From Bacteroidia bacterium (lineage in GTDB: Bacteria; Bacteroidota; Bacteroidia; NS11-12g; UBA9320): a stretch of DNA of 64,000 bases. Position 1 is the stretch's first letter. Every line of letters begins with the position of its first letter. The stretch lies in NCBI GenBank assembly GCA_965216465.1, contig CBDCFW010000006.1, positions 1,088,001 through 1,152,000 on the forward strand. Direction: 5' to 3'. Shown here one piece after another: positions 25,982 through 61,082 of the stretch. The notes under the pieces are model-generated. The model was not told the origin of the DNA and ran no database searches. It saw only the letters and a list, made by a program, of their open reading frames with translations. A program made the position numbers and the translations under genes.

Positions 25982-26875
25982 ATGTCTACAGAGATTCATA
26001 ATTACAAACTTGATAAGCGTCTTGATTTACGCACCGAGGTTTTAATTGAACGTTTAATTTTTCATTCTGAGACATCATACCTTGAAGCTGTTGAGCAGGT
26101 AAAGTTTAATCACCTTGGAGTTAAGAAGCGTGCGTTTAGGACCGAGATTGAAGCAATTAAGTACAATCACGATGATGAAGAGCTATTGGTTGGAATTAAC
26201 CGAACCAGTATATATGATCAACTTCCTGAGGTGCTGTTTCATTCTCCAAAGGTCAAGAATGATCACAACTTGAATTCGATCAAAGAAGAGTTTCAAAAAC
26301 TTAAACGCGAGGAGAAACAAGCGCGTTTGTTCTTTAGTCCATTTGATAACGAGCTTACTTTTGCATTAACTTATAATCAATTAGTTGCTCAGCAAAACGA
26401 GTCATTAGAGTTGATGAAGAAAATATGGAGTCTTCCAAATCATTTCAGTCAATCTCAAAAGCAAGCGTTTTGGAAATTCATGCCATACTTGAGGTACATT
26501 CGAGGGAACGAAGCGAATATTGAAGAGTACCTCAGCTGCACGCTTGGAGCAGCTGTGACACTCTCTTTCAGTGACAGAAAAATGGGCGATGCTACTAAAA
26601 ATACAGAACCAACATTGGGCGGAGATTTTACTCTACTGGGTCCGTTAACAGCTCCTGGAAAACAAGTAAATGTTAAGTTTATGCAACCTGATAATTGGGT
26701 AGTAACAAGCATGTATAAGTCATCTGACCTCATGAAAACTTTGGAATACTTAGTTGATCTTGTGCTTCCAGCTGACCTCTTTTTGAATGTTCTGTGTGAT
26801 GAACCGGCACAAAAATTACAAGAAATTGGCGTTGACGAAAATGCTGGTATATTAGGATTTTCCCTTTATATTTGA
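25982..26875 (+). CDS. tssG: T6SS-iii baseplate subunit TssG
   Basis: DLRTEV, NRTSIYDQLPEVLFH, EEKQARLFFSPFD motifs of Bacteroidota TssG; T6SS context. Confidence 0.8.
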   Translation: MSTEIHNYKLDKRLDLRTEVLIERLIFHSETSYLEAVEQVKFNHLGVKKRAFRTEIEAIKYNHDDEELLVGINRTSIYDQLPEVLFHSPKVKNDHNLNSIKEEFQKLKREEKQARLFFSPFDNELTFALTYNQLVAQQNESLELMKKIWSLPNHFSQSQKQAFWKFMPYLRYIRGNEANIEEYLSCTLGAAVTLSFSDRKMGDATKNTEPTLGGDFTLLGPLTAPGKQVNVKFMQPDNWVVTSMYKSSDLMKTLEYLVDLVLPADLFLNVLCDEPAQKLQEIGVDENAGILGFSLYI

Positions 26876-26897
26876 CTACTTACCTATTAATTTATTC

Positions 26898-27737
26898 ATG
26901 AATATTGCTCTAATAATTACTGTATCTATTCTCTTAATAGCCTCTGTAGTTGTTTTTCTCACAGGAGAAGCAAACAATTTCTCTGTAAAAAGATTCAAAT
27001 ATCTTATAATGGCCTTGTTGTTGGGTCTTGGTTTCAGTCTGTTTTGGTTAATTCCAAGTTTCACTGATATCTCCGTTTCACTTACTTATCGTATTATTCA
27101 AGTTTTGGTGCTAATCTTTGGAATTTGGGCAGTTAAGTTTGGCTTTAGGTCACGCTTCGAGAATTTCCAAAGACTGACCTTGTCTACCCTATCTATCGCG
27201 GGAATTGCAATTAGCTCTGCCTGGCTTTTTGGAGCAGTCTTTATGCAAGTGTTCACAGATTTGGATCTTTCATTTTTTGCAGGTACGAGTTATGTGGTTG
27301 GATTTTTCCCTGTGCTGTTCGTGCTTGGTTTTGAAAATCAATTAGAAATTCCTGAACCCTATTTCAAATTCTTCGAATGGCCCGATGGCACAAATCCGAT
27401 TGACCGAGATTATGTTGACATGGATAACGTTGCCATTATTTCGATAGAATACACTTATAGTGAGGAAGATAGAGAATATACTGAAGTGCAATTCAAAGCA
27501 CCATTCGATTACCTATTAAAAGATTACTTCTATGATTTTGTTATCGAAATGAACGATAATGATCATGAAATAGCATATACCGACAGTGAAGGAGATTTTT
27601 ATAAGTGGCTCTTTTACGTTAAACCACGAAAATTTTGGGAGTCTAAACGATTTTTAGATCCTGATAAAAGTTTGATAGATAATAACATACAAGAATATTG
27701 TACAATCGTTTTTGAACGATTCAAAGAAGAAATATGA
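26898..27737 (+). CDS. tssN: T6SS-iii membrane complex protein TssN
   Basis: About 5 TM helices then IPEP..K...KAP...F...N...I...W.FY.K...LDPDKSL.DN.I.E cytoplasmic domain. Confidence 0.85.
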   Translation: MNIALIITVSILLIASVVVFLTGEANNFSVKRFKYLIMALLLGLGFSLFWLIPSFTDISVSLTYRIIQVLVLIFGIWAVKFGFRSRFENFQRLTLSTLSIAGIAISSAWLFGAVFMQVFTDLDLSFFAGTSYVVGFFPVLFVLGFENQLEIPEPYFKFFEWPDGTNPIDRDYVDMDNVAIISIEYTYSEEDREYTEVQFKAPFDYLLKDYFYDFVIEMNDNDHEIAYTDSEGDFYKWLFYVKPRKFWESKRFLDPDKSLIDNNIQEYCTIVFERFKEEI

Positions 27738-28864
27738 CAGATAATTTTGAATTTGTAAACTGGAGTGATGGAATGAAAATTAGTTCCAAGCACTTTAAAG
27801 ACTTGGAGAATGTGTTGATGAACAACGTAGTTGCTCATAGTCGAGTATCTACGAATTTTTATTCTTACGGTTTGCTTCAACCTCAAGGTGAATACAACAA
27901 CAGTTTGTCTTTTAACCTCAAACAGCATAGCCAAGATCATGTTACAATTAGTTTAGACCATTGTTTTGGAATCACCCCTGGTGGATTAGTGTTATATATC
28001 GATCACCAATTGGGTTCTACCTTGTATCAAGATAAAAAGGTACACATCCAACAAGCAGCCAACGAAAGTAGTTATTACTTAGTCCTGGGTGTGAGCATGA
28101 TGAAGCGAACTCCATCTGGTGCTATTGATAACGATGAAAAACCGATTCGTCATCAAAATGCATATTTTGAAGTAAACTTTTCACTAATTTCTGAATCAGA
28201 ATTAGATGCATCGAGCCAGTTTGACAATTATCTGGTTTTGCAGAAGTACCAGCTTGAAGGCGAGAATTTTGTTGCAGAAGATGATTATGTAGTTCCAGCG
28301 GCCTCTATACAGAGTACTGAAACTATGAGATTGTATTATAACGATACACTCGAGTTTTTTGGTGACCTTGACCGCTTTGCCATTGAAATTGTTAAAAAAT
28401 CGAGTGAGCGATCATCTTCGTTAGCCAGTAACATTGGCGAATTGGCCATGGAAGTAGCAAAACACCTTTCAACCTTAAACTTCGGGTTAAATAATATTAT
28501 ATACGAGAAACCGCCAATTTACTTGATGCAGTATTATGCAGATCTTGCTTCCCGGTTTAGATTGTTTTTCAAATTAATTGAACCAAGCGAGAAAGAAGAG
28601 CTGCTCAACTATTTTGAAGAATGGACGCAAATTAACCCCGGTCAATTCCAAGATGCTATTAAAGGCGTGTTAGGAATGCAGTACCAACATATTAACCTAG
28701 GACTTGCAATGAAGGATACTCGACGCTTTAGAGATGTAATCTATCAAGTGTTCGAAGAACTAAGCAAGCTCGACTTTATCGGCAAGCGTAAGCAAGATCT
28801 AGGTATAGTTTACGAGAAAAAGAAAAACCAAAAAGGAATATTTAGCCCAATTAAAAGGAAATGA
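27734..28864 (+). CDS. tssK: T6SS-iii baseplate subunit TssK
   Basis: VNWSDGMKISSKHF N-terminus, YGLL, CFGITPGG, terminal LSKLDFIGKRK. Confidence 0.8.
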   Translation: MTDNFEFVNWSDGMKISSKHFKDLENVLMNNVVAHSRVSTNFYSYGLLQPQGEYNNSLSFNLKQHSQDHVTISLDHCFGITPGGLVLYIDHQLGSTLYQDKKVHIQQAANESSYYLVLGVSMMKRTPSGAIDNDEKPIRHQNAYFEVNFSLISESELDASSQFDNYLVLQKYQLEGENFVAEDDYVVPAASIQSTETMRLYYNDTLEFFGDLDRFAIEIVKKSSERSSSLASNIGELAMEVAKHLSTLNFGLNNIIYEKPPIYLMQYYADLASRFRLFFKLIEPSEKEELLNYFEEWTQINPGQFQDAIKGVLGMQYQHINLGLAMKDTRRFRDVIYQVFEELSKLDFIGKRKQDLGIVYEKKKNQKGIFSPIKRK

Positions 28865-29337
28865 AACCATTAAACGAAAAAGAAATAAACTCGACATTTT
28901 TTAAGACCTTAGTGTTTTATCTTATTGCAGCCTTGGTACTTATTGTTTCAGCATTTCTTGGTATTCAGATTAGTAATGTTGAAGATAGTACATACAAGGA
29001 GTATTACGATAGCAATCAGCATATAAAATCAAATAACGAAACGCAGATTTCAGAGTACAATTCAATCAGTGATGACCTAGCACGATTGCGATTGTCGGCA
29101 GATGCGTTTGAGCGCAAAGAGCTTGAAGCTGATTTAACGGATCGAATCGCAGAACAAAGAAGAGGACTGGACTCTACACGTCATTTAGAATCTCTATTGC
29201 TTAAGAATTTCCTTGCAGGAGTGACCTTTATTGAAGAATTAGACAAGGCGGAAGAAGAGTACAACGAATTGAAAAAGAAAAATGCCGAATTAACGCGGAA
29301 ATACAACGACTGTAAAGACAGTGACCCATGGGAGTAA
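28861..29337 (+). CDS. tssO: T6SS-iii membrane protein TssO-like
   Basis: MKPLNEKE..FF then a single TM, coiled coil, terminal ..L..C motif; follows tssK. Confidence 0.65.
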   Translation: MKPLNEKEINSTFFKTLVFYLIAALVLIVSAFLGIQISNVEDSTYKEYYDSNQHIKSNNETQISEYNSISDDLARLRLSADAFERKELEADLTDRIAEQRRGLDSTRHLESLLLKNFLAGVTFIEELDKAEEEYNELKKKNAELTRKYNDCKDSDPWE

Positions 29338-29358
29338 TGTGACCTAATATTTAACAAA

Positions 29359-32300
29359 ATGAAAAACCTAACTAGCCTTATTATTTGCTTGTTGTTTGCC
29401 TCAACAGGGTTCGCACAGGTGCTTGAAACTATCAAGTATGATGATGGAATTGCCCAAACCGCAACTCTTGAAAATATTCAGAATCTTGAACTAATGTACA
29501 GGCACATAGATACAAATAACACTTTAGCTCCTGTTGCTTACAATTTTTATTTTGAAGATAATACCAATCCCACTCCAGATGAATACGAAAGAACCGGCTC
29601 AGTGCCGAGTACAATGTCCACAGATAATGTTTACATAGATGGAGTGAAGGTGAGATCTGGTGGGTTAGGTAAGTTTGAGTTTTCGTTTGCTGCAGGAAAT
29701 TTTGCAACCATTAACATAACACCCAATAGGTTGACGACTGGTAGATTCGACATTAATGTAATGCAATATGATTTTTCTCGCAAGGGAATTACTATACAAA
29801 GTGCAGGGTTGGCTTGTGACACCTTTAAACTTGTAATTGCCGATAGTTCTTTCGACGCAGATGAGAACATCTTTGTTCAATACATATATGATGGTTCAGA
29901 GTATGTTGAAGAGTTAACAAGTTCAAATAATTACACGGCAAAGGTGCCTAGAGACTTAAATGCAAGCAGTAATAAGATTAGCTATTTTGTTTTTAGCTCA
30001 ACGCTTAGTCATAGTGATTTAACTATAACGGGCAATGTTGCCGAATATGATACCTTAGAAGTTCGTTTGGCTGCAATTAATTTCCCAAGTTTTCATTATC
30101 AGCATTTTGATTTTCCTACATTGTCTAATGCTTACAGTTTCATAAACGACGAAGAGCATTGCAACACCAGTACCGATGCAATTGAGCTATCGTGCTCATC
30201 TTGGCCTGATTCAACGTATCTCGAAATAACGAATACGACCAGTGGTTCCTCAACTACCTATCAAAAACAAGAAACGAATGGGCTTTCTGGTAATGCTACC
30301 TTTAACCTTCCTATAGTTCAAAATGACGATAATACTTTCACCTTAACAGTTAAAGACAGCGGGTTTTGTAACACTATTTATTCTGAAGATGTAGTAAAGA
30401 ATGAAGGGAATATTCCGGTTCCCAACAACACCTTTACCAGCGACGATGAATTGTGTTTTGATCATGGAACTGGGTCTAACATTTCGCTGGTTATGAATAC
30501 AAACTTATCCGGAGCAGACTCTATTTATCAGCTTTACGGATATTCAGCAGGAACGAATCTACCTACAACCTTCGCGGATACAAAGGTGAACACTAACTTA
30601 AATGTCAATGAGACATATACCAACTCGACTACATCTATCCATTATTTATATATCGAAACACGAGCTAAAGAAGGAACTTGTTGGTCTACAACCAGTGACT
30701 TTGACACCGTAATCTTTTATCCAGCCTTGCAACAACCAGTTATAACTTTTGCTGATTCGGCATTTTGTAGCGGAACTCAATATGTTGTTGGAATGAAAGA
30801 CATGTCGAGTTTGTCGTCTTTCATAACTGACTTTGAATTGATTGAAGACCCAAATAAAACAACCAATCCGAGTCATAGCATTACAGCAAAGGCTCCTCAT
30901 ATCGATTCATTCAATGTTACCATAACTTCTTCGAACAACAACATTCAGAATGTTCATTTGCAAGGAAAGAGTATTGGTTTCAATAATTGTGAATCTGAAC
31001 CGGTTCAAGTCACGTATAAAGCCACACGCTACCCAACAGTGAGTTCAGACGTAAATCAGTCACTTGCACTCTGCAACGGTTCTGCTTTGAACATTGAACT
31101 CGATGCATTGAACAATTCACAGTTTCGTTCTTATTTCACACAGCCCAGCAGTGGTACCATAGGAGGACTTCCAGGAGGTGAAGTCACTGGAGCAGATCTC
31201 AATATCAGTTCGGTTACCAATAACAGCAATTCCAATTCACGAATCTTTGGAATCAAATCTGTAGCTCAACGCTTAGGTTGTTTGTCTGATACATTCGAAC
31301 ATACCGTAAAGGTTATGCCACAGTCGATAAATGTTTCGATTTCTGCAACAAAAGATCCTGTTTGCTCGAACGAAGAACTTCAATTTACTGCATCAAGCTT
31401 TTTAGACAATTCGAATAATCCCAATTTAGATATTGAGCTAGATGGACAGCCTACTGATCCTTCAGGGGAATTGAGTAGAAATGGTTCACAGTCTGCTTTT
31501 ACAGGAACAACGTTTAAAGATCGACTTGTAAATCCGTCTCAGGCTACCCAAACTGCAACCTATAAGTTCACTGTAACCTACGATTCAGCAGGATTAACGT
31601 GCAACTATGCCGACGAACAAGTTTCGATAGGTGTTCGACCTAGAATTGAAAGACCACAAATCACTTTTGCTGATTCAGCCTTGTGCAGTGGACAAAATCA
31701 CATTATCACACTTCAAGATACTTCAGGGTTTGCTATTCCAAATATGACTTTTGAGAATGTTAACTCTTCAGTGGTGAACGGACCTCTAACAATTACACAT
31801 ATTGAAGAAACTTCACCGCCGTCGACCAGCATGTGGAATGCACAAGTTTCAGTACCGAGCACAAATAAAGCAGTAGGTCGAATTCGTGTTGTGTTTAGAA
31901 CGGTAGGCTTTGATAATTGTAGATCGAGCAATACACCAATAGAGATTAGTGCCACCAAAATTCCAAGTATCAATACAGACTTAACTTCTGACACGGTTTG
32001 CAACGAATCGGTATTAGACATAAACTTATCTACCGATGCAGGAATGTCAGGTGTTTGGTTCAATACACGCTTTGGTCCTGCAAATGGGAATATTACAGGA
32101 ATTCCTTTTGGAAGCGAAATAAAGCATAAAGACGTTGGGCCTTATAACATGGAGAATACAGGGAATTCATTTACCCAGAACTTTGATGTATTCTCTAGAG
32201 CTACTCGATTAGGCTGCTCATCACAAGAAATAAAACGTACACCAGTTGTTTTACCGCACCTTAATACGACTCTTACCGGAGATGATGACATTTGTTCCGA

Positions 32301-33348
32301 AGAGGAAATGACGATTTCGTTCAGAAATCAGCTGAATACTGCGCAAAATCTAAGTTACAATTATCGCCTTGATAATTTCAGTTTGCCTCAAGCGGGAAGC
32401 GTTACACGTATCAACCAAAAAGATGAAGATGACGACCTAAGTTTTACTGAGACACTCAGAAACAATACCAATGATAAGCAAACGGTAGAATATACATTCA
32501 AAGCAAACTACAGCAACCGTTGTTTTTATTCCGATGATTTAACTTGGGAAGTTACCGTAAAGCCTTGGGTAGAGTTTAGCGATCCACCTTATGTTTTAGG
32601 GGAAGATGAAGTTTGCGAAAATTCTGGAGTATTTTTCATTATTAATGAAACGGAACCAGGTGGGAATTACACATGGACGACCAGCTCAGACGTAATTGTA
32701 ACCCAAGATGCTTCAATTAATGGAGGAATCAGTGCACATTTACAATTCTTAAAATCAGGTACTGAAATCATTCGCATATCAGGTTCAAACCCATCTTTTT
32801 GTTCGCAAGAAACCCAGTTTACAGTAAATGTAAATGAGAAGATAGAGGACTTCGATGTCCTCAAAATTCAAAACGTACCGCATGACATGTTAGTCGTTAA
32901 TTTAAATGAGTACGACTCGATAAAGTGGGGAACTTTTGACAAAGCGAATGTTGAAACAAGATCAGATTTCTTGTCGACATTCCAAACCCTAGCAGTTGAC
33001 AATTTTGATCCCGATAACTATTTCTATTTCGCAGAAATATTCGATGGAAATTGTAAATCAATGAACTTTTATAACTATGGGGCTTTAGCCGGGCTTCGAG
33101 GTCTTGATCACCGTTTGATTCAAGTCTACCCAAACCCTTCGAGAAATGTAGTTCACTTGGTTTGGAAGGAAAATGGACTAGTTAAAGGTGGCGAAATTCG
33201 AAATGCTCTAGGTCAACATGTAGATTGTGAGTTTATCGATTCGGGCGGTGAGATTATCATAGATGTTGGACACCTAGCAACCGGAGCTTATTTTGGGTCT
33301 GTAATGTTAGACCAAACAATGTATCACTTTAAATTTATTAAGCAATGA
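29359..33348 (+). CDS. Large T9SS cargo protein with Cys-containing Ig/PKD-like repeats (adhesin-like)
   Basis: Signal peptide; repeated xxCSG/CNG/CSN Ig-like modules; C-terminal IQVYPNP...LATGAYF...KFIKQ type A CTD. Confidence 0.85.
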   Translation: MKNLTSLIICLLFASTGFAQVLETIKYDDGIAQTATLENIQNLELMYRHIDTNNTLAPVAYNFYFEDNTNPTPDEYERTGSVPSTMSTDNVYIDGVKVRSGGLGKFEFSFAAGNFATINITPNRLTTGRFDINVMQYDFSRKGITIQSAGLACDTFKLVIADSSFDADENIFVQYIYDGSEYVEELTSSNNYTAKVPRDLNASSNKISYFVFSSTLSHSDLTITGNVAEYDTLEVRLAAINFPSFHYQHFDFPTLSNAYSFINDEEHCNTSTDAIELSCSSWPDSTYLEITNTTSGSSTTYQKQETNGLSGNATFNLPIVQNDDNTFTLTVKDSGFCNTIYSEDVVKNEGNIPVPNNTFTSDDELCFDHGTGSNISLVMNTNLSGADSIYQLYGYSAGTNLPTTFADTKVNTNLNVNETYTNSTTSIHYLYIETRAKEGTCWSTTSDFDTVIFYPALQQPVITFADSAFCSGTQYVVGMKDMSSLSSFITDFELIEDPNKTTNPSHSITAKAPHIDSFNVTITSSNNNIQNVHLQGKSIGFNNCESEPVQVTYKATRYPTVSSDVNQSLALCNGSALNIELDALNNSQFRSYFTQPSSGTIGGLPGGEVTGADLNISSVTNNSNSNSRIFGIKSVAQRLGCLSDTFEHTVKVMPQSINVSISATKDPVCSNEELQFTASSFLDNSNNPNLDIELDGQPTDPSGELSRNGSQSAFTGTTFKDRLVNPSQATQTATYKFTVTYDSAGLTCNYADEQVSIGVRPRIERPQITFADSALCSGQNHIITLQDTSGFAIPNMTFENVNSSVVNGPLTITHIEETSPPSTSMWNAQVSVPSTNKAVGRIRVVFRTVGFDNCRSSNTPIEISATKIPSINTDLTSDTVCNESVLDINLSTDAGMSGVWFNTRFGPANGNITGIPFGSEIKHKDVGPYNMENTGNSFTQNFDVFSRATRLGCSSQEIKRTPVVLPHLNTTLTGDDDICSEEEMTISFRNQLNTAQNLSYNYRLDNFSLPQAGSVTRINQKDEDDDLSFTETLRNNTNDKQTVEYTFKANYSNRCFYSDDLTWEVTVKPWVEFSDPPYVLGEDEVCENSGVFFIINETEPGGNYTWTTSSDVIVTQDASINGGISAHLQFLKSGTEIIRISGSNPSFCSQETQFTVNVNEKIEDFDVLKIQNVPHDMLVVNLNEYDSIKWGTFDKANVETRSDFLSTFQTLAVDNFDPDNYFYFAEIFDGNCKSMNFYNYGALAGLRGLDHRLIQVYPNPSRNVVHLVWKENGLVKGGEIRNALGQHVDCEFIDSGGEIIIDVGHLATGAYFGSVMLDQTMYHFKFIKQ

Positions 33349-34790: not shown

Positions 34791-34792
34791 AC

Positions 34793-35755: not shown

Positions 35756-35766
35756 AAAATTGATAT

Positions 35767-36732: not shown

Positions 36733-36743
36733 AGATGTAAATT

Positions 36744-49814: not shown

Positions 49815-49825
49815 TAAGTAGAGTA

Positions 49826-51202: not shown

Positions 51203-51241
51203 TTAATTTGAAAACTAATAATAACCTTAAAACATTAAATT

Positions 51242-51634
51242 ATGTCATTTAAAGCAACATTATCAATTGACGGTGGAAACGAAGTAAAATTACTCCACTG
51301 CAGTTACACATTACAAAGAGATGTAGATCAATTTGGACGTCCATCGAGTGACGTTTACGGAGGGCAGATTACCTGCGAAATTGAAGCAACGGAGGATGCC
51401 TCCTTATTCGAGTGGATTACCACCGCACACAAACTAAAAAACGGGAGCATTAAGTTTTATAAACGGGACGAAGATGCAAAGATGAAAGAGTTAAAATGGA
51501 CCGATGGATACTGCATCCATTTCAATGAAGCGTTCGATACAACGGGAACAAACCCAATGAACATTACTTTCACGGTTTCTGCTCGTGTGATTGAAGTTCA
51601 AGCTGCTTCATTTGAAGTTGAATGGCCTGATTAA
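51242..51634 (+). CDS. tssD: T6SS-iii tube protein TssD (Hcp)
   Basis: MSFKATL, LHCSY...D..GRPSS...GGQI, G.IKF.K.D...KMKEL.W..GYC..F.E. Confidence 0.93.
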   Translation: MSFKATLSIDGGNEVKLLHCSYTLQRDVDQFGRPSSDVYGGQITCEIEATEDASLFEWITTAHKLKNGSIKFYKRDEDAKMKELKWTDGYCIHFNEAFDTTGTNPMNITFTVSARVIEVQAASFEVEWPD

Positions 51635-51652
51635 AATTTATACATAAAATAA

Positions 51653-51686
51653 GTGGTAGCTATGATTTCGTAGTTACCACATTTTC
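51653..51686 (+). terminator. Hairpin after hcp (terminator or mRNA stabiliser)
   Basis: GTGGTAGCTATG/CGTAGTTACCAC stem with G-U pairs (51653-51680), followed by ATTTTC. Confidence 0.6.
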
Positions 51687-51697
51687 ATTAGAATACT

Positions 51698-53545: not shown

Positions 53546-53986
53546 ATGAGAAATGCACGTTATCTTGGAATACCAATCAACTTTGCTAAGCTCAATCAAG
53601 GGGCTAGAATTCGCGATATAGATTTTAACGAATCAATTGCCCAATACATATACACAATTCTAATAACCGAATGCGGAGAATTAAGCTCTGACAAAGACTT
53701 CGGCACAACTGTATGGGATTATGATTTTACGATAACCAACTTTACATCAGAGTGGAAAGATTCGGTTTCAAGCTCAATAGGATCAGCTATTAAAAGATAT
53801 ATCACCCAACTTGACAATATTCGAGTTGATGTCGAAATCGCAGATGAACAATACTCCGATAAGGTAAAAAATGCACTTCGAATCAAGAAAAAGATTACTA
53901 TAAAAGTTACCGGTCAGTTGAAATCTACAAAAGAAGACTATGCTTTCAACCAATCGCTTTATCTTAGCCCAATAACTGTTGAATAA
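53546..53986 (+). CDS. tssE: Baseplate wedge TssE (gp25-like)
   Basis: SIAQYI..IL.T..GE...D..FG..VWDYDF, terminal YLSP. Confidence 0.85.
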   Translation: MRNARYLGIPINFAKLNQGARIRDIDFNESIAQYIYTILITECGELSSDKDFGTTVWDYDFTITNFTSEWKDSVSSSIGSAIKRYITQLDNIRVDVEIADEQYSDKVKNALRIKKKITIKVTGQLKSTKEDYAFNQSLYLSPITVE

Positions 53987-55850
53987 ATTGACAAGACGTA
54001 GTATTGAATCCAGAAATGAAATCTTATCTAGATTAACTAAAACAGCACTTCAGCATTGGGGTGTACAGAATAAGGATATAGATTCGTTTGACCCTGTAGT
54101 TAAGCTACTGCTGTCAGGATTCGCACAAGAGATTCACCGCGTTTATCACGAAATTGAAAATGCAAATATTCGTGTTCTCAGACAGCTAAGTTCAATTCTA
54201 AATCCAGGATATCATGCCGGAGTGAATCCTGCTCATGCTTTGCTTCAATTGTCGCCAACGGAACCGAAGGTAGAAGTGAATAAATACTCTCAGTTCAAGG
54301 TGTTAAAGGCCAAAGAACGCAGACTTGAGCAAGAGATTAAAATGGAAGAAGTAGAAGTATTTTTCTCTCCATTAAATTTTTACACTTTGCACGATGTTTA
54401 CTTAGGTCGAAAAGTAGTAGGCAACTACATCTATGAGTATGATAAAGAAGGACAACAAATCGAAAGAAGTAAGGTTACATTAAATACTGCCCTAGAAGAA
54501 AATGAGGTACTCTTAGGGTTGTGTGTTACAAACAGACTGGACAAGATTAATCAACTTTCTCTGCAAATTGATTGGAAAAATATTATGTCCAGAAAGCAGC
54601 TCCAGGAGCTATTAGGTGATTGCGAGTTTATATTGGGAAATGAAATTATAAAATCTTCAGTTGGAATTGCACGTTCTCGAAATATGAAGGAGGAATCTTT
54701 TCAAATTCCAGCGTTTCAACGGGCACAACAGGTTACTCAAAAGCTTGAGGTAGAGATTGCTGACCTCTATAAGAAGCAGTATCTTTCTTTAGACCTTCAA
54801 AACATAAATCTTCAAGAAGTTCAAAACCACTATTCAGAGATTGAAGAATCCCAACACGTGGGTTCAAATTACCGTGTGGTTTGGATTAAAGTAAAGTTTA
54901 ACCCAAATATTGATAAGTCAATCAATGCACATCTTGTAGTTCGAACCAATTGCATACCTGTTGTCAATAGAAGGTACGAACAACTCAATGTTGACATTTC
55001 AAATACGGCTAAGATAATACCACTCACCACGATTAATTCTGAGTTTTTAGACCTGATTTCAGTAACCGATGAAGAAAAGAAGAAGTTTGTAGTAGGAAAT
55101 TCGGTTAGTAAATCACAAGATCAAGAAGATAGAACCTATGTTCTCAGAGAAAGTGGAATTGAGCGTTTTGACAGCAGAGACTCTAAAGAACTTTTACTTC
55201 ATCTCATCGATTTACTGCGAGACGAAAGTGCTGTGTTTTCAGCAATTGGAATAGATTTTCTAAGTGCCATTCTTAAAGATTTGAATCAAAGCATTAATCT
55301 ACTTGAACAGAAGTCGCTTGATCAGCTTGATGAATTACAAAATCACACACATTATTTGACCATAAAGGCACCAGATAATTGCAGAACCATCTTTGTAGAC
55401 TTTTGGTCTTGTGCAGGTCAATTTGGAAATAATCTAGGACCTAATGATCGAGTTGTTACCGAAACAATGCTTGATGTAAATGATTCGCTTACGCAATTTA
55501 TTTCGATGACGGCTGGCGGCCGAGATAAGAAGATTGGTGATGATGAATTGTCAGGGTTGAAGCGTTCGATGATTTCTGGAGGTAAAGTAGTTACGAAGAT
55601 TGACATTGTTCTATTTGTACAAGATGAATTCGGAGAATACATAGATCATGTTGAAGTTAAGAATGGTGGTATGGTTAGCGAAAAGATGAATGAAGGGTAC
55701 ATATCTACAGTTGATGTTCATATAGACCCTATAGAGGTTGAAGAAGATAGCAACTTCAAACTTGAGGAGCTAATGGTAGAAATAAAATCCAAATTGGAAA
55801 TGCATTCACCACCATACTACAATTATAGAGTGCTTCAAGCTTCAAATTAG
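53979..55850 (+). CDS. tssF: Baseplate subunit TssF
   Basis: WG.....SFDPVVKLL, PAHALL, NCIPVVNR, LRESGIERFDSR...L..LIDLLRDESA.F, GGRD, VVTK.DI. Confidence 0.88.
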   Translation: MNKLTRRSIESRNEILSRLTKTALQHWGVQNKDIDSFDPVVKLLLSGFAQEIHRVYHEIENANIRVLRQLSSILNPGYHAGVNPAHALLQLSPTEPKVEVNKYSQFKVLKAKERRLEQEIKMEEVEVFFSPLNFYTLHDVYLGRKVVGNYIYEYDKEGQQIERSKVTLNTALEENEVLLGLCVTNRLDKINQLSLQIDWKNIMSRKQLQELLGDCEFILGNEIIKSSVGIARSRNMKEESFQIPAFQRAQQVTQKLEVEIADLYKKQYLSLDLQNINLQEVQNHYSEIEESQHVGSNYRVVWIKVKFNPNIDKSINAHLVVRTNCIPVVNRRYEQLNVDISNTAKIIPLTTINSEFLDLISVTDEEKKKFVVGNSVSKSQDQEDRTYVLRESGIERFDSRDSKELLLHLIDLLRDESAVFSAIGIDFLSAILKDLNQSINLLEQKSLDQLDELQNHTHYLTIKAPDNCRTIFVDFWSCAGQFGNNLGPNDRVVTETMLDVNDSLTQFISMTAGGRDKKIGDDELSGLKRSMISGGKVVTKIDIVLFVQDEFGEYIDHVEVKNGGMVSEKMNEGYISTVDVHIDPIEVEEDSNFKLEELMVEIKSKLEMHSPPYYNYRVLQASN

Positions 55851-55924: not shown

Positions 55925-56437
55925 ATGGGAAAACCTGCTGCAAGATTAACAGACTTTCATGCTTGCCCGATGGTAACACCGGGTGTTCCACCGATTCCAC
56001 ATGTTGGTGGTCCAATAATAGGTAGTGGATGTCTTACAGTACTGATTGCTGGCATGCCAGCAGCAGTAATGGGTGATCAGTGTATGTGTACAGGTCCACC
56101 TGATGTGGCTATATTGGGCTCGACAGGCGTATTTATCGGAAAAAAAATGGCTTTGCGTATGGGCGATAGTACGGCTCATGGAGGAACCATCGTGGCGGGA
56201 GCTCCAACGGTATTAATCGGTGAAATGAAACCAGGCGGACCACCTGCTCCTTTACCACCAAGTGTTGCCAACATGGTGAACAACATGAAGTCGCAAGCGA
56301 AAAGTAACCAACCTGGAGGTCTATCACAAATATTCTCAGGTTCTAAAGGTAAATTCTCTTCTGCGTCTTTTTCAAGCTCGCTATCCGAAGCAGCTCAAAA
56401 TAACTCGCCATTCATTCATGCATGCGAACAGTGTTAA
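55925..56437 (+). CDS. PAAR-domain protein with C-terminal extension
   Basis: PAARLTDFHACP, PHVGGPI, PAAVMGD, RMGDSTAHGG, PTVLIG; extension ends SPFIHACEQC. Confidence 0.93.
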   Translation: MGKPAARLTDFHACPMVTPGVPPIPHVGGPIIGSGCLTVLIAGMPAAVMGDQCMCTGPPDVAILGSTGVFIGKKMALRMGDSTAHGGTIVAGAPTVLIGEMKPGGPPAPLPPSVANMVNNMKSQAKSNQPGGLSQIFSGSKGKFSSASFSSSLSEAAQNNSPFIHACEQC

Positions 56438-56440
56438 GCT

Positions 56441-56803
56441 ATGAGAAACTTAGTCATACTCAATCCTCAATTTGAAAAAATTAAAGCCATTTATAAAATG
56501 GACTTTATCTCGCGTGTGTATGACGAGCTTGTCGAAATTCATGGAGCCAATCTTGGTTTAGACAATAAAGAACTCTCATTTGAAATACTAGATGATTTGG
56601 TTGACGAAGCTAAAGAATTTGATTTTGAAACTGAGGGCGATGTTTTTTATTATATCACCAAGTTCTATGAATATGACTTTTTGCAAGAAAGACCACTCGA
56701 AGATAAGGTGGTTGAAATTCTTACGTGGCCGGACCGGGATTCGTATACAAAGTTTGAACTATTAGAAGAATATAAAGCAGAAAATGGGCCAGAAGAAAGT
56801 TGA
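56441..56803 (+). CDS. Acidic helical hypothetical protein, candidate effector co-chaperone
   Basis: 120 aa, acidic, no signal peptide; L.I...Q...F...A..F.FETE.DV pattern; between PAAR and the putative effector. Confidence 0.6.
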   Translation: MRNLVILNPQFEKIKAIYKMDFISRVYDELVEIHGANLGLDNKELSFEILDDLVDEAKEFDFETEGDVFYYITKFYEYDFLQERPLEDKVVEILTWPDRDSYTKFELLEEYKAENGPEES

Positions 56804-58211
56804 TAATAGCGTTCAATCTTGTTCTCAGCCTCATGAATCTGAAAATAATGAGTGCAATCATTCAGGATTAATTCTCAGCGTGAACGACTTGAGTTTTAAA
56901 ACCGACGAGACAACCAAGCACAAAACGGTTGCGATTGTTGCTGGAAATGATAAAACGCGTAAAGATGTTGAACTTGAACCGTTAGGACTTGTCGGTCCTT
57001 GTGCAACCCATACCGACAAGGTTTTTGATGCCAAAACTAGCAATGGCGATGAAAAATCTGACCAAAAGTTAAAAATCAAATTGGGTTCAGAAGACCCAAG
57101 AGAATTCAGCACAAAAGGAATAAAGGACTTCTTTTGGCCAAAAGGGGCAAGCCCCAAGCATTATGATGTAAAATGCAATACTTGCGGTCAGAATCACAGT
57201 TATGGTATTGACGTTTATCCAGATATAACGTGGGAGCTCGAAATCGGTGGAAAGATGGAAGTTGATGGTAATACGGGTAAGACTGATTTTGGATTTGACG
57301 CGGGTATAGAAGCCAAATATGATGGGGAGCAAGTGGTGAAGTTTGAAACGGGATCGAGCGAGAATGAAGAAGAATACTCCACCATCGACACCATTATTGA
57401 TCTCATGTATGGAACGAAGAAAGTGGTTGCTGAATTTAGTGAGTTTTGTTCAAAGGGAGAAGGTGAATTCAAATTGGAACACGGTGTTAAACTGAAAGCT
57501 AACTACGGTTGGGAAGAGGTTCCTGGAACTCCTACTGTTGATCATGCCGTAGACCTGACTCTGTCGCTAGACCCTATGTTGAAAATTGAGTTGAGCAAAG
57601 ACTTTGCAGGGCCTTTATTACACGCAATTCCGGGTGTTGGGAGTGCATTAGCAGGTATTGTTTGGCTCATGGAAAAAGCAAAAACGGGTAAGCTAGATTT
57701 GGTTGCAGGTTGTAGTGGTGAGTATAAAGCAGATTTTCATTTGATGCATATTGCAGGTGACGCAACGGACAAAAGAAACCAAGTTGATATTGCAGGAGGC
57801 ATTGAATTTTATATGAAGTTTAATGCCGAGGTGCACGTGACGGTAGGAGTAGGTTTTGGATATGAATCACGAACATCTGGGAAGTTTGAGGCAGGAGGGA
57901 AAGCAAAATTTGGATTGGAAGCAGGAGGAGAAAATAGAAAGCTTGTTAACGGTGAAGATTCAGTTAGCGCCTACATGAAATTTGGATTTTTAGGTCTTTA
58001 TCTGTACTACATTGCTGCAGTAAATCAGGGTATTGCCAAAAGCGGATCTAAGAGCCACTTAAGTACGGAATTTAAAGATGAAGGCAAAGCCGGAGAGGAT
58101 GATGCTCCTGATGACGGAGGTGAAAAACCTGAGGCTGACAAGCAAACGGTTACCTATAAAATAATTGATGCTTTCTCGATTGTAGAAAAATCATTAAAAC
58201 TAGTGAAATAG
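56784..58211 (+). CDS. Putative T6SS effector of unknown function
   Basis: 475 aa, no signal peptide, Cys/His-rich N-terminus, Gly-rich beta strands, hydrophobic segment LLHAIPGVGSALAGIVWL; cassette position. Confidence 0.55.
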   Translation: MGQKKVDNSVQSCSQPHESENNECNHSGLILSVNDLSFKTDETTKHKTVAIVAGNDKTRKDVELEPLGLVGPCATHTDKVFDAKTSNGDEKSDQKLKIKLGSEDPREFSTKGIKDFFWPKGASPKHYDVKCNTCGQNHSYGIDVYPDITWELEIGGKMEVDGNTGKTDFGFDAGIEAKYDGEQVVKFETGSSENEEEYSTIDTIIDLMYGTKKVVAEFSEFCSKGEGEFKLEHGVKLKANYGWEEVPGTPTVDHAVDLTLSLDPMLKIELSKDFAGPLLHAIPGVGSALAGIVWLMEKAKTGKLDLVAGCSGEYKADFHLMHIAGDATDKRNQVDIAGGIEFYMKFNAEVHVTVGVGFGYESRTSGKFEAGGKAKFGLEAGGENRKLVNGEDSVSAYMKFGFLGLYLYYIAAVNQGIAKSGSKSHLSTEFKDEGKAGEDDAPDDGGEKPEADKQTVTYKIIDAFSIVEKSLKLVK

Positions 58212-58215
58212 AAAG

Positions 58216-58983
58216 TTGAAGAGACCAGTTTACATACTTAATTACTCTGTTGAGGTAGGTTCATTTGAGCTTTCAATAAACGACATACCTGTTGTAGTTG
58301 ATGGGGATATTGGAAATGTGTTTTCAAGAATTGCACTGAACCCATGGGTTCGTAAAGGAGAAAACTACGTTACTTTAAAAATTGAGAATACCTCAGATAA
58401 CAAGCTTAAAGAGAGTAAGGCCTCTATGGAATTGGGCCTGGTCGAAAGCCACGACCGTCTTGAAGAAGGCAAACAGGTTGTCGAATCTAAAGAAACGGAT
58501 AGCTCAATCGCGTCTATGACATCTACCACGATCAGGATCGTTTTTGTCTCTGATATTGAGCACCTAAATCCAATCTATGAAACTAATGGCGAGCGTCTAA
58601 AACCGAGTCCTAAACTTTTTAAACAGCTGCTTGAGAAGTACCAAGAGATTCATGGTATAATGAAGAACAAAGACCTTAATTCATTTTTGACACTTAATCG
58701 TGTAAAAGATATGGAGTGGTCTTCTTCTGTTTATCTGTCGTATGAAGATCGCGTAAAAGAGATTCGCATGATGTTTGATGAGATATTTAAACTCGACTTA
58801 CTGAAAATAGAGCAAAGTATGATTGAGCTAAAGGTGTTTAACGAAGGAAAGCTGTTTGCAATTCAGTACCCAAAAGGCTTTGATTTGATTTGTTTTGCGA
58901 ACAAAGATTTAACTCATTTTGAGTATATTCCTATAGTGTTTTACTTCGATAAAACAGAAAAAGATTTTATTTTAGTGAGGTAG
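58216..58983 (+). CDS. Putative cytoplasmic immunity protein
   Basis: 255 aa, no signal peptide, starts 4 nt after the putative effector; FELSINDIPV...LNPWV.KGEN beta-sandwich-like start. Confidence 0.5.
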   Translation: MKRPVYILNYSVEVGSFELSINDIPVVVDGDIGNVFSRIALNPWVRKGENYVTLKIENTSDNKLKESKASMELGLVESHDRLEEGKQVVESKETDSSIASMTSTTIRIVFVSDIEHLNPIYETNGERLKPSPKLFKQLLEKYQEIHGIMKNKDLNSFLTLNRVKDMEWSSSVYLSYEDRVKEIRMMFDEIFKLDLLKIEQSMIELKVFNEGKLFAIQYPKGFDLICFANKDLTHFEYIPIVFYFDKTEKDFILVR

Positions 58984-58985
58984 AT

Positions 58986-60236
58986 ATGGAGACCTATTAC
59001 ATAATAGATGCAGCAAAGTATCCGCTTGTTATAGCTGAGGGAGAGACCTTGCCCAAAGGTTTGATTCCTCTCTTATTAGGCACGCGATACAAATCTTCGT
59101 ATTTGCTCGGACCTTTTTTAGTCACCCAAAAAGAGTTTAAAGACCTCGATTCTTGGTTTTATACCGACGGCTTTTATGACATTATGAAGATTGATACAGA
59201 AATCAGAGATGCTGTGTCAATGGCAAATCTGATGCGATCAAAGCTAGAGGTTGATACAGAAGATGGACACACCTTGTTCTTTAGATATTACGACCCGAAG
59301 GTATTTCGTATGATGGCACCTATGCTTACCGAAGACCAGTTAAATGACTTCTATAAGCACATTGAAAGCATATCTATTTACGATTTGGATTATCAATCAC
59401 TATACGCCACCAAAGTCAAAAATAAGAAGCTTGAAGAAACGATAGAGCCTTTGCCCGAGAATGGGGGGAGTATGAAAAAAATCAAGTTTCCTCTACCAAC
59501 CTTAAGTCAGGTGAAGTGTTTAAATAAGCTTAAAGGAGCTAAAAGTGATTTAGAACTTCAGTATGGAGCGAAAATAAAACGATTAAATAAGTTAATTGAG
59601 TCTAATGCAAGTCCTGCACTTATTCACGCTGAAATAGAACGAATTACTGGTCAACAAATCAATGCACAAAGCTTATTCGACAAAAAGGGAGGCGCTGTTA
59701 AATCAAAAATGTCTAAGCTCCGTGCAAAGTCGTTTCAAATAGCAAGCATGCGAAATCAGCAACAGACCAAAATGGAGCAGCCAATTAAAGATCTTGCAGC
59801 TTTGAAGCGTAAACACAACCCCATTAGAGGCATTATGAATAAGAAGAATGCACTCGAACAAGATGCAACAACTAAGTTGAACAAAGCAAAACTGCAGGCA
59901 AGAAACAAGTCAGGCTTAACAAAAGCTCAGCAAGAATTAAGCAAAGCAAAATCTAATAAGGAGGTATTAGAGCATCGCCTTAAAACAGCAGATAATAAAG
60001 CCAAGAATAAAGTACTCTCAAAGGTGCAAAATAAAACAGCCGATCTGCGTACACTACAAGACCTCTCCAAGAACCCTAAGTCGGTAAACCAAGGAATAAC
60101 CAAAGTTAATAAACTTCATGCTATGGCTTCTAAGTACAAGGAAAAAGGAGAAAAAAAGAAAAAAGAAGAGCAGAAAAAGAAGAAAGAAGAACAGAAACCA
60201 ACCAAGATTAAAAAGAGTTGGGATTTAGATTTTTAG
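58986..60236 (+). CDS. DUF4123 (Tap-1/Tec-like) adaptor fused to a Lys-rich coiled-coil tail
   Basis: YYIIDAA, GPFLV, LFFRYYDPKVFR, L...QL..F DUF4123 motifs in the first ~135 aa; very basic helical C-terminal ~250 aa. Confidence 0.8.
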   Translation: METYYIIDAAKYPLVIAEGETLPKGLIPLLLGTRYKSSYLLGPFLVTQKEFKDLDSWFYTDGFYDIMKIDTEIRDAVSMANLMRSKLEVDTEDGHTLFFRYYDPKVFRMMAPMLTEDQLNDFYKHIESISIYDLDYQSLYATKVKNKKLEETIEPLPENGGSMKKIKFPLPTLSQVKCLNKLKGAKSDLELQYGAKIKRLNKLIESNASPALIHAEIERITGQQINAQSLFDKKGGAVKSKMSKLRAKSFQIASMRNQQQTKMEQPIKDLAALKRKHNPIRGIMNKKNALEQDATTKLNKAKLQARNKSGLTKAQQELSKAKSNKEVLEHRLKTADNKAKNKVLSKVQNKTADLRTLQDLSKNPKSVNQGITKVNKLHAMASKYKEKGEKKKKEEQKKKKEEQKPTKIKKSWDLDF

Positions 60237-60239
60237 TGA

Positions 60240-61082
60240 ATGGGTAAGGCATACACACGATGGAGGCGCTCACCAGGACTCTTTGATACTGTATTGGTGG
60301 GGATAGATGGAACTGGTTCTTCTGATGACTCTTCTTATGCTTCAGCGTATCAACACAGTTTTGTAAACGAAATATATGACCGATCAAGAGTAAAGAATAA
60401 ATACTATTTTAGAGGTCCATCCCTTCTTGGTTTTGAACGAAAAGCTCTTAAAACAATACTCGATGCAACATTAAGTGGTGGACAAAGTTTCGCCAATCCC
60501 CGTAGAAAGTTTAAAATCTTATTGATGGGATGGAGTAGAGGAGGAGCAGCCTGTATTCATATTGCAAAAGAACTACAACGCTACAACATTGATGTGAAAG
60601 CCATGCTGCTTTTTGATCCTGTAGATCGGGATTTGGCACTTAGTACAGGTAGAGTACCAAACAATGTTAAAGATGCCTTAACCATTGTAAGAAGGCCAGA
60701 AACAGGCTCATGGGAAAGTTTTGGCTATGCTATCGATAATATTGACTTCAACAATACGAGTAGATATCAGCATTCATCAAATCACAGCATTGTTACAATC
60801 TTTGGTACTCACGCTGCAATTGGGGGAGTGGTAGGCCCAAAAGAAGGATATGCCGCGGTCGAAACTAGAGGCCAAGGCAAATTGTATATGGGAGATGCTA
60901 GTATGGCCGATCCTTATGGGATATCACGTGATTATGTTCAAGCTAAAGCATATTTCGGGCAAGAGAATGACATGCATGTAAAAATGCTAACCTCACATGT
61001 TTCGTTTGACGACGACTTAAAAGCACGCAAACTTGTTAAGCACGAAATAAAAGGATTCTTAAGCAAACATGGTTACGTGTAG
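60240..61082 (+). CDS. Alpha/beta-hydrolase effector, Tle1/DUF2235-like lipase
   Basis: GIDGTG, GWSRGGA (GxSxG), LFDPV, GTHAAIGG catalytic Ser/Asp/His pattern; no signal peptide; follows DUF4123. Confidence 0.75.
   Translation: MGKAYTRWRRSPGLFDTVLVGIDGTGSSDDSSYASAYQHSFVNEIYDRSRVKNKYYFRGPSLLGFERKALKTILDATLSGGQSFANPRRKFKILLMGWSRGGAACIHIAKELQRYNIDVKAMLLFDPVDRDLALSTGRVPNNVKDALTIVRRPETGSWESFGYAIDNIDFNNTSRYQHSSNHSIVTIFGTHAAIGGVVGPKEGYAAVETRGQGKLYMGDASMADPYGISRDYVQAKAYFGQENDMHVKMLTSHVSFDDDLKARKLVKHEIKGFLSKHGYV

Follow-up and report, generated by a model that had tools for sequence, protein, structure and literature searches.

A type VI secretion locus of Bacteroidota with tssP and tssR set in a recurrent six-gene envelope module

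The locus and its envelope genes

The stretch of DNA considered here (the window) is 64,000 nucleotides long and comes from a Bacteroidia bacterium of the NS11-12g lineage (assembly GCA_965216465.1, contig CBDCFW010000006.1, positions 1,088,001 to 1,152,000 of the forward strand). At window positions 25982-61082 it carries a type VI secretion system of subtype iii (T6SS-iii), made of co-oriented, densely packed genes within a forward-strand series that runs unbroken from 24890 to 63653 (listing of open reading frames (ORFs) and junction check). The tssP and tssR genes of this locus lie in a module of six kinds of gene, which in order encode a surface protein with Ig/PKD repeats exported by the type IX secretion system (T9SS), an outer-membrane protein with an NTF2-like domain and a barrel, TssP, a stand-alone von Willebrand factor type A (vWA) protein, TssR and an ABC (ATP-binding cassette) protein of type VII. 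The window holds a variant of this order, with two copies each of tssP and tssR and an additional gene for a DUF5723-like/TSP3 outer-membrane protein.

The module recurs. A word search with the C-terminal 529 amino acids (aa) of the ABC protein returned only three other proteins among 5.8 billion, and a profile built from the alignment of the word-search proteins found 65 loci of this rare ABC family among 185,579 species genomes (related loci are cited below by L numbers). Ten of the loci begin within or at the ABC gene; in all of the 55 with an upstream ORF, the gene directly 5' of the ABC gene is of the TssR family. The order vWA-TssR-ABC is found in 33 loci, and the longer order barrel-TssP-vWA-TssR-ABC in 21 of the 38 loci with at least five upstream ORFs. 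Loci were annotated with the window proteins by tblastn, blastp and jackhmmer. The genes between tssO and tssH in the window are as follows.

29359-33348, forward strand: surface protein of 1329 aa with PKD-like repeats and a T9SS type-A C-terminal sorting domain (Pfam PKD_5, Por_Secre_tail)
33345-34790, forward strand: outer-membrane protein with a signal peptide, an NTF2-like periplasmic domain (residues ~30-181) and a barrel of ~12 strands (206-480) (Pfam OMP_b-brl_2, AlphaFold2)
34793-36732, forward strand: two TssP paralogues of 320 and 321 aa, 26% identical, with an N-terminal transmembrane helix and a PKD domain (Pfam PKD, architecture)
36744-37358, forward strand: stand-alone vWA-fold protein ('s204') of 204 aa, secreted or anchored (AlphaFold2, Foldseek)
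37345-39798 and 39811-42225, forward strand: two TssR paralogues of 817 and 804 aa, 31% identical (Pfam TssR, TssR_M, TssR_VWA and TssR_C all above cut-off in both)
42228-44684, forward strand: MacB-like type VII ABC protein of 818 aa (Pfam ABC_tran 95.7 bits, FtsX 30.7 bits)
44681-46822, forward strand: outer-membrane-type protein of 713 aa with a DUF5723-like N-terminal domain, TSP3 calcium-binding repeats and a short C-terminal region (Pfam TSP_3, atlas)

An earlier reading of the window from its letters alone (the original prediction) had proposed a complete T6SS-iii locus with a greatly expanded envelope module. Profile annotation with Pfam and NCBIfam, the ORF listing and the junctions agree on a T6SS-iii locus of co-oriented genes; the core families are present but TssQ was not found in the locus, so that 'complete' is slightly generous. 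The tssQ gene is described as absent or unidentifiable in 23% of systems (PMC10781749). The junctions had been given as ATGA overlaps or gaps of about 20 nt or less. ATGA overlaps do occur at five of them (between the two lipoprotein-like genes lipA and lipB described below, tssN/tssK, tssK/tssO, surface protein/barrel and ABC/DUF5723-like), but the bound on the largest gap between tssO and tssH is 41 nt. No break in base composition was seen across the window. A scan of positions 28800-47000 for promoters and terminators was uninformative, giving 35 promoter-like sites against 53.9±8.3 in shuffles by a sigma-70 consensus unsuited to Bacteroidota, and 15 terminator-like sites against 10.5±3.2.

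By hydropathy the ABC protein consists of an N-terminal ATPase, a first transmembrane helix (TM1, residues 305-330), a periplasmic domain of ~350 aa and three further helices of the FtsX permease (TM2-4), and it ends in PGDLIYNR. Across 32 fused members of the family the ATPase motifs (Walker A, Q-loop, LSGGQ, Walker B, H-loop) show at least 90% conservation, and the window protein is predicted to be catalytically competent. Judged by its ATPase, four-helix permease, periplasmic domain and motifs, it is assigned to the type VII (MacB/FtsX-fold) ABC systems. The nearest solved nucleotide-binding domains in a sequence search of the PDB are those of MacB, LolD, BceA, YbbA and FtsE, and the best NCBIfam match of the ATPase is LolD (149 bits, below cut-off). 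Like the type VII mechanotransducers MacB, LolCDE, FtsEX, BceAB and YbbAP it has intact ATPase motifs, and it shares the topology of MacB (fused ATPase, four FtsX helices, periplasmic domain between TM1 and TM2), so that the MacB-type transporter of the original prediction holds at the level of ABC_tran plus FtsX, topology and motifs. It is nevertheless unlike MacB proper, an identity that was rejected: the equivalog NF007826 scored 122.8 bits against a cut-off of 966, the MacB periplasmic-core Pfam family has no match in the protein, and neither a MacA-like adaptor nor a TolC-like family was found among the locus ORFs with Pfam and NCBIfam. The ~350-aa periplasmic domain and the family-specific C-terminal PGDLIYNR set the family apart from known type VII systems.

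The two TssR proteins are the sole above-cut-off matches to TssR_VWA in the genome. Read by eye, both appear to have an ordinary signal peptide rather than that of a lipoprotein, as do most ABC-adjacent TssR proteins, whose signal peptides end in ...AQ and lack a lipobox cysteine. TssP has been described as having an N-terminal helix and a PKD domain (PMC10781749); the family was found in 33 loci, with weak matches in the classical T6SS-iii loci L068 and L069. The duplications of tssP and tssR in the window are probably old, because the two TssR are 31% and the two TssP 26% identical. A minority of loci (L010, L016, L018, L038, L039, L043, L050, L059 and L061 are examples) likewise have a second TssR, TssR fragment or TssP. 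Duplicated tssP and tssR had been counted as part of the expanded architecture; two of each stand in the window, but a second full-length copy is confined to few loci.

The surface protein at the head of the module carries a T9SS tail that scores just above the cut-offs of both Por_Secre_tail (PF18962, 27.1 bits against 27) and TIGR04183 (27.6 against 23), and the genome encodes SprA on the same contig as the locus (SprA_N, 539.8 bits), in keeping with the T9SS cargo that had been predicted. A large protein with a T9SS C-terminal domain above the Pfam cut-off heads the module in 12 of the 14 related loci tested, L053 and L049 being negative. Its repeats differ from locus to locus, with PKD_5, PKD_6, Ig_7 and C25 gingipain-like peptidase domains all represented. 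Two close pairs of loci could be compared, and in the closest (L024 and L030) the surface proteins align over 393 aa only, at 54% identity, while TssC is 95%, TssR 87%, the barrel 83% and the ABC protein 82% identical, which suggests that the surface protein evolves fast. At L062:195-5905, in a genome where TssC was not found, the place of the surface protein, before barrel, TssR-like and ABC genes, is taken by two gingipain-like C25 peptidases that bear T9SS sorting domains.

Two outer-membrane barrels had been predicted. That at 33345-34790 stands, by its AlphaFold2 model (pLDDT, the predicted local distance difference test, 82.7) and Foldseek, in which the barrel resembles OpcA, Pla, OmpA, Ail and OmpX and the N-terminal domain the NTF2-like LinA and the CaMKII hub; that at 44681-46822 rests on an N-terminal domain that is only a remote DUF5723 relative. 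The barrel family is present in 35 of the 65 loci and in the upstream chain of 29. A proposed homology between the barrel and the DUF5723-like N-domain was rejected, the common part being the TSP3-repeat linker only. So was the idea that the barrel substitutes for a missing lipid anchor of TssR: TssR proteins without a lipobox also occur in the ABC-lacking loci L081-L083 and L087, and those of L084-L086 have lipoboxes.

The 204-aa protein has no Pfam match, Pfam VWA included. Its AlphaFold2 model (pLDDT 89.1) matches the vWA domains of Rpn10, BatB and TFIIH p44 in Foldseek, at E-values of 2e-6 to 1e-4 and template-modelling scores of 0.5-0.6, with 96 matches at E<=0.001, and it appears to represent a new family. 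In this family only the first aspartate (D31, consensus YIDNS) of the metal ion-dependent adhesion site (DxSxS) is near-invariant, and the full motif is not evident. The gene lies immediately 5' of tssR in 33 loci. An identity as the missing TssQ was considered and rejected, since TssQ is described as an elongated helical protein (PMC10781749) and the model is an alpha/beta vWA fold. In L031 barrel and vWA are naturally fused in one protein of 755 aa (barrel, residues 53-283, 6e-17; vWA, residues 588-730, 2e-17), and five further fusions of the vWA domain (L032, L033, L038, L039, L043) have N-terminal parts without an identifiable family. A complex prediction for the window's barrel and vWA proteins scored 0.59 (runs of 0.59, 0.59 and 0.41) against 0.02 for the best control and was graded as weak support, with contacts agreeing by at least 75% between runs and a partner pLDDT of at least 77. 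Of 80 solved complexes 58 attain the score mark applied, as do 2 of 110 mismatches; those that attain it with a score of 0.60 or less are only 7 of the 80 solved complexes, together with both passing mismatches.

The 713-aa protein is the least shared of the set. Its closest class in a protein language-model atlas is DUF5723 (0.97), and its N-terminal domain has 19 remote phmmer relatives (E 4e-8 to 9e-4) among 1.8 billion representatives; among the 18 relatives scanned, 10 carry DUF5723, 9 OmpA and 8 TSP_3. OmpA itself has no Pfam match in the window protein, though its C-terminal region may be a degenerate OmpA-like domain. A word search retrieved the protein itself only, the N-terminal domain has no paralogue elsewhere in the genome, and no homologue was found in the 65 loci beyond the shared TSP3 repeats. 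The gene had been taken as part of a shared architecture, which fails because the 65 loci hold no counterpart of it. Along with the extra copies of tssP and tssR, this gene appears special to the genome, allowing for the minority of loci that also carry a second TssP or TssR.

Around these genes the core of a T6SS-iii and its associated genes are arranged as listed here, with 'above cut-off' decided for all locus ORFs by the curated cut-offs of Pfam and NCBIfam.

24890-25896, forward strand: two small lipoprotein-like paralogues (lipA/lipB) of 152 and 183 aa, 50% identical, with an ATGA overlap (jackhmmer)
25982-26875, forward strand: TssG-like baseplate gene, 297 aa (homologues and synteny)
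26898-27737, forward strand: TssN, inner-membrane hub of the T6SS-iii membrane complex (Pfam PF17555, 4.3e-36, 125 bits against a cut-off of 30.3)
27734-28864, forward strand: TssK baseplate subunit (TIGR03353, 2e-8, 33.7 bits, below the cut-off of 100)
28861-29337, forward strand: TssO-like protein of 158 aa, with a transmembrane helix at the N-terminus and then a helical/coiled-coil part (weak Pfam TssO, atlas neighbours)
46864-55850, forward strand: ClpV/TssH, TssB, TssC, Hcp, VgrG, TssE and TssF (Pfam, NCBIfam, homologues)
55925-61082, forward strand: PAAR, then proteins of 120, 475 and 255 aa, a DUF4123 adaptor and a 280-aa protein (Pfam PAAR_motif, DUF4123)

Above the Pfam cut-off are TssN, the two TssR, ClpV, TssC, Hcp, VgrG, TssE, TssF, PAAR, DUF4123, ABC_tran with FtsX, and TSP_3. 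Sheath, tube and spike are represented by TssB and TssC (PF17541, 699.6 bits, 2e-210), Hcp/TssD (PF17642, 152 bits) and VgrG (TIGR01646, 141.7 bits). TssB scores 20.6 bits against Pfam VipA, below cut-off, and is identified by 40-52% identity to the gene preceding tssC in other loci. ClpV and the baseplate are likewise present, with TssE at 30.8 bits (gp25, cut-off 27.2) and TssF at 32.9 (cut-off 25), and the whole series from ClpV to TssF is 26-62% identical to counterpart genes in related loci. TssK and TssG are assigned on homologues and synteny alone: for TssK, tblastn found homologues (E 2e-27 to 7e-35) in 7 of the 13 other T6SS-iii regions, adjoining tssN or tssG in three, and the TssG-like protein, with no Pfam or NCBIfam family match, has homologues beside tssN/tssK or after tssF in L017, L027, L068, L069, L078 and L079. 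For the membrane complex, TssN and the two TssR are strong, TssP is recognised by architecture and weak homologues, and TssO is weak, with a Pfam E-value of 0.034 that nevertheless spans the model end to end (residues 4-153 on positions 1-146 of 148) and atlas neighbours in TssO clusters at 0.95. TssJ, TssL and TssM had no match among the locus ORFs in Pfam or NCBIfam.

The 120-, 475-, 255- and 280-aa proteins of the PAAR cassette have no assigned family. The order PAAR-120-475-255-DUF4123 is found again in L007, and the 475-255-DUF4123 part in L027, where PAAR was detected by tblastn only. The 475- and 255-aa proteins, which gave no family match, are a candidate effector and partner.

Distribution of the module with and without a T6SS

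Sixty-two of the 65 loci are in Bacteroidota, from Chitinophagales, Saprospiraceae, Flavobacteriales and Bacteroidales, and the order of the five extra genes other than the DUF5723-like one is kept across these four lineages at 22-39% protein identity. In many loci the series ClpV-TssB-TssC-Hcp-VgrG-TssE-TssF continues from the module, as it does in the window. The extra genes of the original prediction are thus syntenic with T6SS genes elsewhere as far as these five are concerned (55/55 for tssR-ABC, 21/38 for the full order); the DUF5723-like/TSP3 gene is not, with no homologue in any locus beyond its TSP3 repeats. On this gene-order evidence most of the extra genes appear not to be passengers. 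The cultured carriers are Flaviaesturariibacter amylovorans JCM 17919 (L003) and an isolate assembly of Leyella stercorea (L048). In the latter, at L048:6994-10295, TssR and ABC genes are followed by a tubulin-like GTPase and a trypsin-like peptidase. Two loci come from metagenome-assembled genomes (MAGs) labelled Bifidobacteriaceae (L019) and Cloacimonadota (L054). L019 is a complete Chitinophagales-like T6SS-iii locus, which suggests that its label is mis-binned or mistaken, and L054 is a partial ABC match only.

Core genes are present in 26 of the 65 loci. In the other 39 genomes, whose fetched locus had few or no T6SS core genes, TssC was sought with PF17541 and was found in 16 and not in 23. 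These 23 gave no match (0/23) when retested with the most divergent ABC-linked TssC, that of L053, with both controls positive (2/2), and in 8 of them TssN and TssF were not found either (controls again 2/2). The total is thus 42 T6SS-linked loci out of 65, the remaining 23 belonging to genomes in which a T6SS was not found. The TssC-negative genomes are MAGs of unstated completeness, so that absence is not proven, but the pattern follows locus type, and random incompleteness would not produce such a pattern. TssC-negative loci mostly have the ATPase and the permease as separate genes; L029 and L052, in whose genomes TssC was not found, retain all six genes in order, with ATPase and permease fused. 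Among the TssC-negative loci, L038, L039, L061, L064 and L065 have TssR-like genes that score above the Pfam TssR cut-offs.

The permease part of the ABC family was placed in a FastTree phylogeny of 59 rows, seven loci with a permease ORF shorter than 430 aa being excluded. A clade with 100% support unites 36 fused-type members, the window among them, and 33 of these are T6SS-linked; among the other 23 rows, 19 are without a T6SS and 4 with one. The tree is midpoint-rooted, and the direction of change is not established. Genes for signalling also accompany some relatives. Clustering placed PP2C and Ser/Thr-kinase families in four related loci (L038, L039, L045, L056) and FHA in three of these, and a Reg_prop/Y_Y_Y/SpoIIE-type phosphatase lies directly 3' in L029 and L052. 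At L045:8140-12463 the split ABC genes are followed by FHA, PP2C and Ser/Thr-kinase genes, and at L038:11564-16372 by FHA, PP2C and a vWA-alpha/beta-hydrolase, in both cases in a genome where no T6SS was detected. None of kinase, FHA or PP2C was found in the window locus with Pfam and NCBIfam.

Comparison in the other direction was made with T6SS-iii genomes at large. In a sample of 400 genomes of the phylum, 13 had TssC and served as the comparison set. None of the 13 carries the 204-aa vWA family, and none the ABC family, barring one marginal partial match of 19 bits (E 8.9e-4); the barrel profile gave partial matches only, of 36 bits or less and mostly to the TSP3-like linker. In three of the 13 (L072-L074) tssR abuts clpV directly. 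The ABC, vWA and barrel genes thus appear to co-occur as a set, and the distinct architecture claimed for the window is borne out against these 13 genomes by the lack of ABC and vWA genes. Closer to home, neither TssC nor the C-terminus of the ABC protein was found in any of 40 relatives of the window genome (24 of the same genus, 16 of the same order), so that among the sampled kin the system as a whole is confined to this genome. The flanking genes vary in five relatives, with the M4 protease in 2/5 and a molybdopterin enzyme in 0/5, and no insertion site is therefore definable.

Relation to known systems and possible function

The best described T6SS-iii is that of Bacteroides fragilis GA3, with its TssNQOPR membrane complex (PMC10781749; PMC4714493). 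TssB, C, D, E, F, G, H, I, K, N, O, P and R are common to it and the window locus, and as in described T6SS-iii loci tssN is flanked by tssG and tssK, and tssP and tssR form a group. Unlike in B. fragilis, TssQ was not found, tssO follows tssK instead of standing with tssP, tssP and tssR are duplicated, a vWA gene lies between them, a type VII ABC gene follows tssR, and a barrel gene and a T9SS-tailed gene precede tssP. The terms 'ABC' and 'beta-barrel' are absent from the main texts of both papers. Full-text searches of the literature, to the depth of their result listings, found no description of an ABC transporter, T9SS cargo or barrel as part of T6SS-iii loci, and the view of the original prediction that this is an apparently undescribed arrangement agrees with them. 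The T6SS locus of Flavobacterium johnsoniae is not known to carry an ABC gene.

A functional parallel may be found in the H1-T6SS of Pseudomonas aeruginosa. PpkA, a kinase acting in that system's signalling, has a periplasmic vWA domain. In the threonine phosphorylation pathway of the H1-T6SS the ABC-like TagTS, with outer-membrane TagQ and periplasmic TagR, acts upstream of PpkA, Fha1 and PppA (PMC13584744), and the same source lists only TagA, B and C as T6SS accessory genes of Bacteroidota. Like the TagQRST pathway, the window locus combines an ABC ATPase and an FtsX-type permease with outer-membrane and periplasmic partners inside a T6SS locus, and four related loci have PP2C and Ser/Thr-kinase genes, three of them also FHA, in the ABC locus. 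Unlike it, the T6SS is of type iii and not type i, TssR, vWA, barrel and T9SS cargo stand in place of TagQ and TagR; the likeness is one of gene set. A second parallel concerns the peptidoglycan anchors TagL and TagN of T6SS-i (PMC13584744). The 713-aa protein may belong to a DUF5723-TSP3-OmpA class with relatives that have OmpA peptidoglycan-binding domains, and by this analogy it could anchor the apparatus to the wall; unlike TagL and TagN, it has no OmpA Pfam match, is of outer- and not inner-membrane type, and is not conserved in related loci.

We put at roughly even odds (about 0.5) the reading that the window holds an intact T6SS-iii of recurrent, distinct architecture, in which tssP and tssR are embedded in a conserved six-gene envelope module that acts as the envelope-spanning part of the machine or as its regulator. 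The module is most likely an ATP-driven trans-envelope accessory or sensing module. In the mechanism that we envisage, the barrel, the vWA protein and TssR would form the outer-membrane and periplasmic part of a physical complex. The ABC protein would carry no substrate across the inner membrane, as in other type VII ABC systems; ATP hydrolysis in the cytoplasm would instead change the conformation of its large periplasmic domain and would through this govern how the complex is assembled, gated or activated, comparably to TagTS. The variable surface protein delivered by T9SS would serve as an adhesin or contact sensor, which would accord with the adhesion or sensing apparatus that had been suggested for the locus. 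Gene identities, folds, conserved order, co-occurrence and intact ATPase motifs are observations; the physical complex, the direction of signalling and a part in firing are proposals built on them.

Several observations weigh against this reading. Since a sheath gene was not found in the genomes that hold 23 of the 65 loci, the module needs no T6SS and may serve a function unrelated to firing; to this extent the placing of the extra genes as parts of the T6SS does not hold, as the module is not T6SS-specific. The window locus lacks kinase, FHA and PP2C genes, so that TagTS-like signalling, if real, must work differently there. A quick TssC tree (32 rows, matches covering less than 85% of the query excluded) interleaves ABC-bearing and ABC-lacking systems with at least four changes, at weak support, and the architecture is therefore not a clean T6SS subtype; repeated gain or loss of the module is likely on this tree. 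The lipoprotein status of TssR does not separate ABC-bearing from ABC-lacking architectures, and the barrel-vWA complex score falls in a range that, without a good prior, is more often wrong than right.

The main rival, less probable but given real weight by the loci without a T6SS, is that the module (T9SS-tailed surface protein, barrel, vWA, TssR-like and type VII ABC) is a self-standing envelope system, in some lineages no more than a neighbour of the T6SS, and is not needed for firing; it might, for example, display, anchor or turn over the T9SS-delivered surface protein, or signal envelope stress or contact to Ser/Thr kinases. The 23 TssC-negative genomes, by PF17541 and the divergent query alike, speak for it, as do the 8 also negative for TssN and TssF, the retention of the six-gene order in L029 and L052, the kinase, PP2C and FHA genes after the ABC genes in the T6SS-less L038 and L045, and the mostly T6SS-less make-up of the lineages outside the T6SS-linked clade of the permease tree. 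Set against this, TssR and TssP are described as individually essential parts of the membrane complex in B. fragilis (PMC10781749), 33 of the 36 members of the window's fused-type clade are T6SS-linked, the module sits between T6SS genes with overlaps of a few bases, and the T6SS-less genomes are MAGs of unstated completeness. Both readings merge in a version that we hold tentatively, in which an autonomous ATP-powered trans-envelope machine of Bacteroidota, working in many lineages without a T6SS and there often wired to FHA, PP2C and Ser/Thr-kinase signalling, was the source from which the periplasmic and outer half of the T6SS-iii membrane complex (TssR, and perhaps TssP) was recruited; the window would then preserve a captured state, with ATPase and permease fused and surface contact coupled to firing. 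If so, this machine would be the ancestor that Bongiovanni et al. (2024, PMC10781749) sought and did not find; they report that in 1253 complete genomes homologues of the membrane complex are absent outside T6SS loci. The present data, by comparison, are rich in MAGs and concern TssR and, in L029 and L052, genes resembling tssP, but no full complex.

Narrower roles for the ABC protein are unlikely. It might be a dedicated extractor, Lol-like or chaperone-like, that during assembly passes TssR or some other module protein from the inner to the outer membrane, for which its strict adjacency to tssR could argue, as could LolD being its best NCBIfam ATPase match (149 bits, below cut-off) and among its nearest solved structures. 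Its periplasmic domain of ~350 aa is, however, much larger than that of LolC/E. TssR is also described as an outer-membrane lipoprotein in B. fragilis (PMC10781749), but most ABC-adjacent TssR proteins, including both window copies, have no lipobox cysteine and would not be Lol substrates. More improbable still is an FtsEX-like activator of a periplasmic peptidoglycan hydrolase that opens the wall to let the membrane complex through. In its favour, the nearest solved ATPases include FtsE, the window has an M23/LytM peptidase gene (61168-61812), and the route of the T6SS-iii complex through peptidoglycan is named as an open question (PMC10781749); yet the M23 gene is 16 kb 3' of the ABC gene, none of the 65 loci holds a homologue of it, and no hydrolase is conserved within the module. 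That the extra genes are chance passengers inserted into a T6SS operon is scarcely credible. The DUF5723-like/TSP3 gene would fit, having no counterpart in related loci and an N-domain without a paralogue in the genome, but for all the other extra genes the idea is contradicted by an order kept across four lineages at 22-39% identity.

How a T6SS-iii crosses periplasm, peptidoglycan and outer membrane, and where its Bacteroidota-specific complex came from, are described as open questions (PMC10781749). The locus and its 64 relatives offer four candidate parts beyond the B. fragilis model, namely a type VII ABC energiser or sensor, a vWA protein, an outer-membrane barrel and a variable surface protein delivered by T9SS. 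They link T9SS and T6SS genetically, and for T6SS-iii they may be the equivalent of the TagTS pathway. Because TssR-family genes also accompany this ABC partner in genomes that yielded no T6SS, it becomes possible to test where the complex came from, and genetics is feasible because a cultured carrier exists (Flaviaesturariibacter amylovorans JCM 17919, L003).

Neighbouring genes

Directly 5' of the TssG-like gene, the two lipoprotein-like paralogues at 24890-25896 have no Pfam or NCBIfam match. Homologues were found by jackhmmer in two other ABC-type loci, L036 (two copies) and L043, so the pair is possibly associated with the locus and could encode immunity or accessory proteins.

Upstream of 24.6 kb the window holds unrelated housekeeping genes and, on the opposite strand, a T9SS-tailed M4 protease: a thermolysin-type metalloprotease of 1121 aa with a T9SS C-terminal sorting domain (20854-24219, reverse strand). 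Further genes in this part encode a LuxR-type response regulator (20143-20814), a Peptidase_S74 (endosialidase chaperone) protein of 413 aa with a phage tail-fibre-type domain, alone among the housekeeping genes (18627-19868, reverse strand), and an MbnP-like protein paired with a di-haem MauG-type cytochrome c peroxidase, as in copper-acquisition operons (11029-12761). Beyond the 3' end of the locus, on the same strand, follow a secreted M23 peptidase, a 575-aa WD40 propeller and a Peptidase_C14 caspase-domain protein (window 61168-63998 and L088:1705-3030); the WD40 and caspase genes together resemble a conflict or signalling system of their own.

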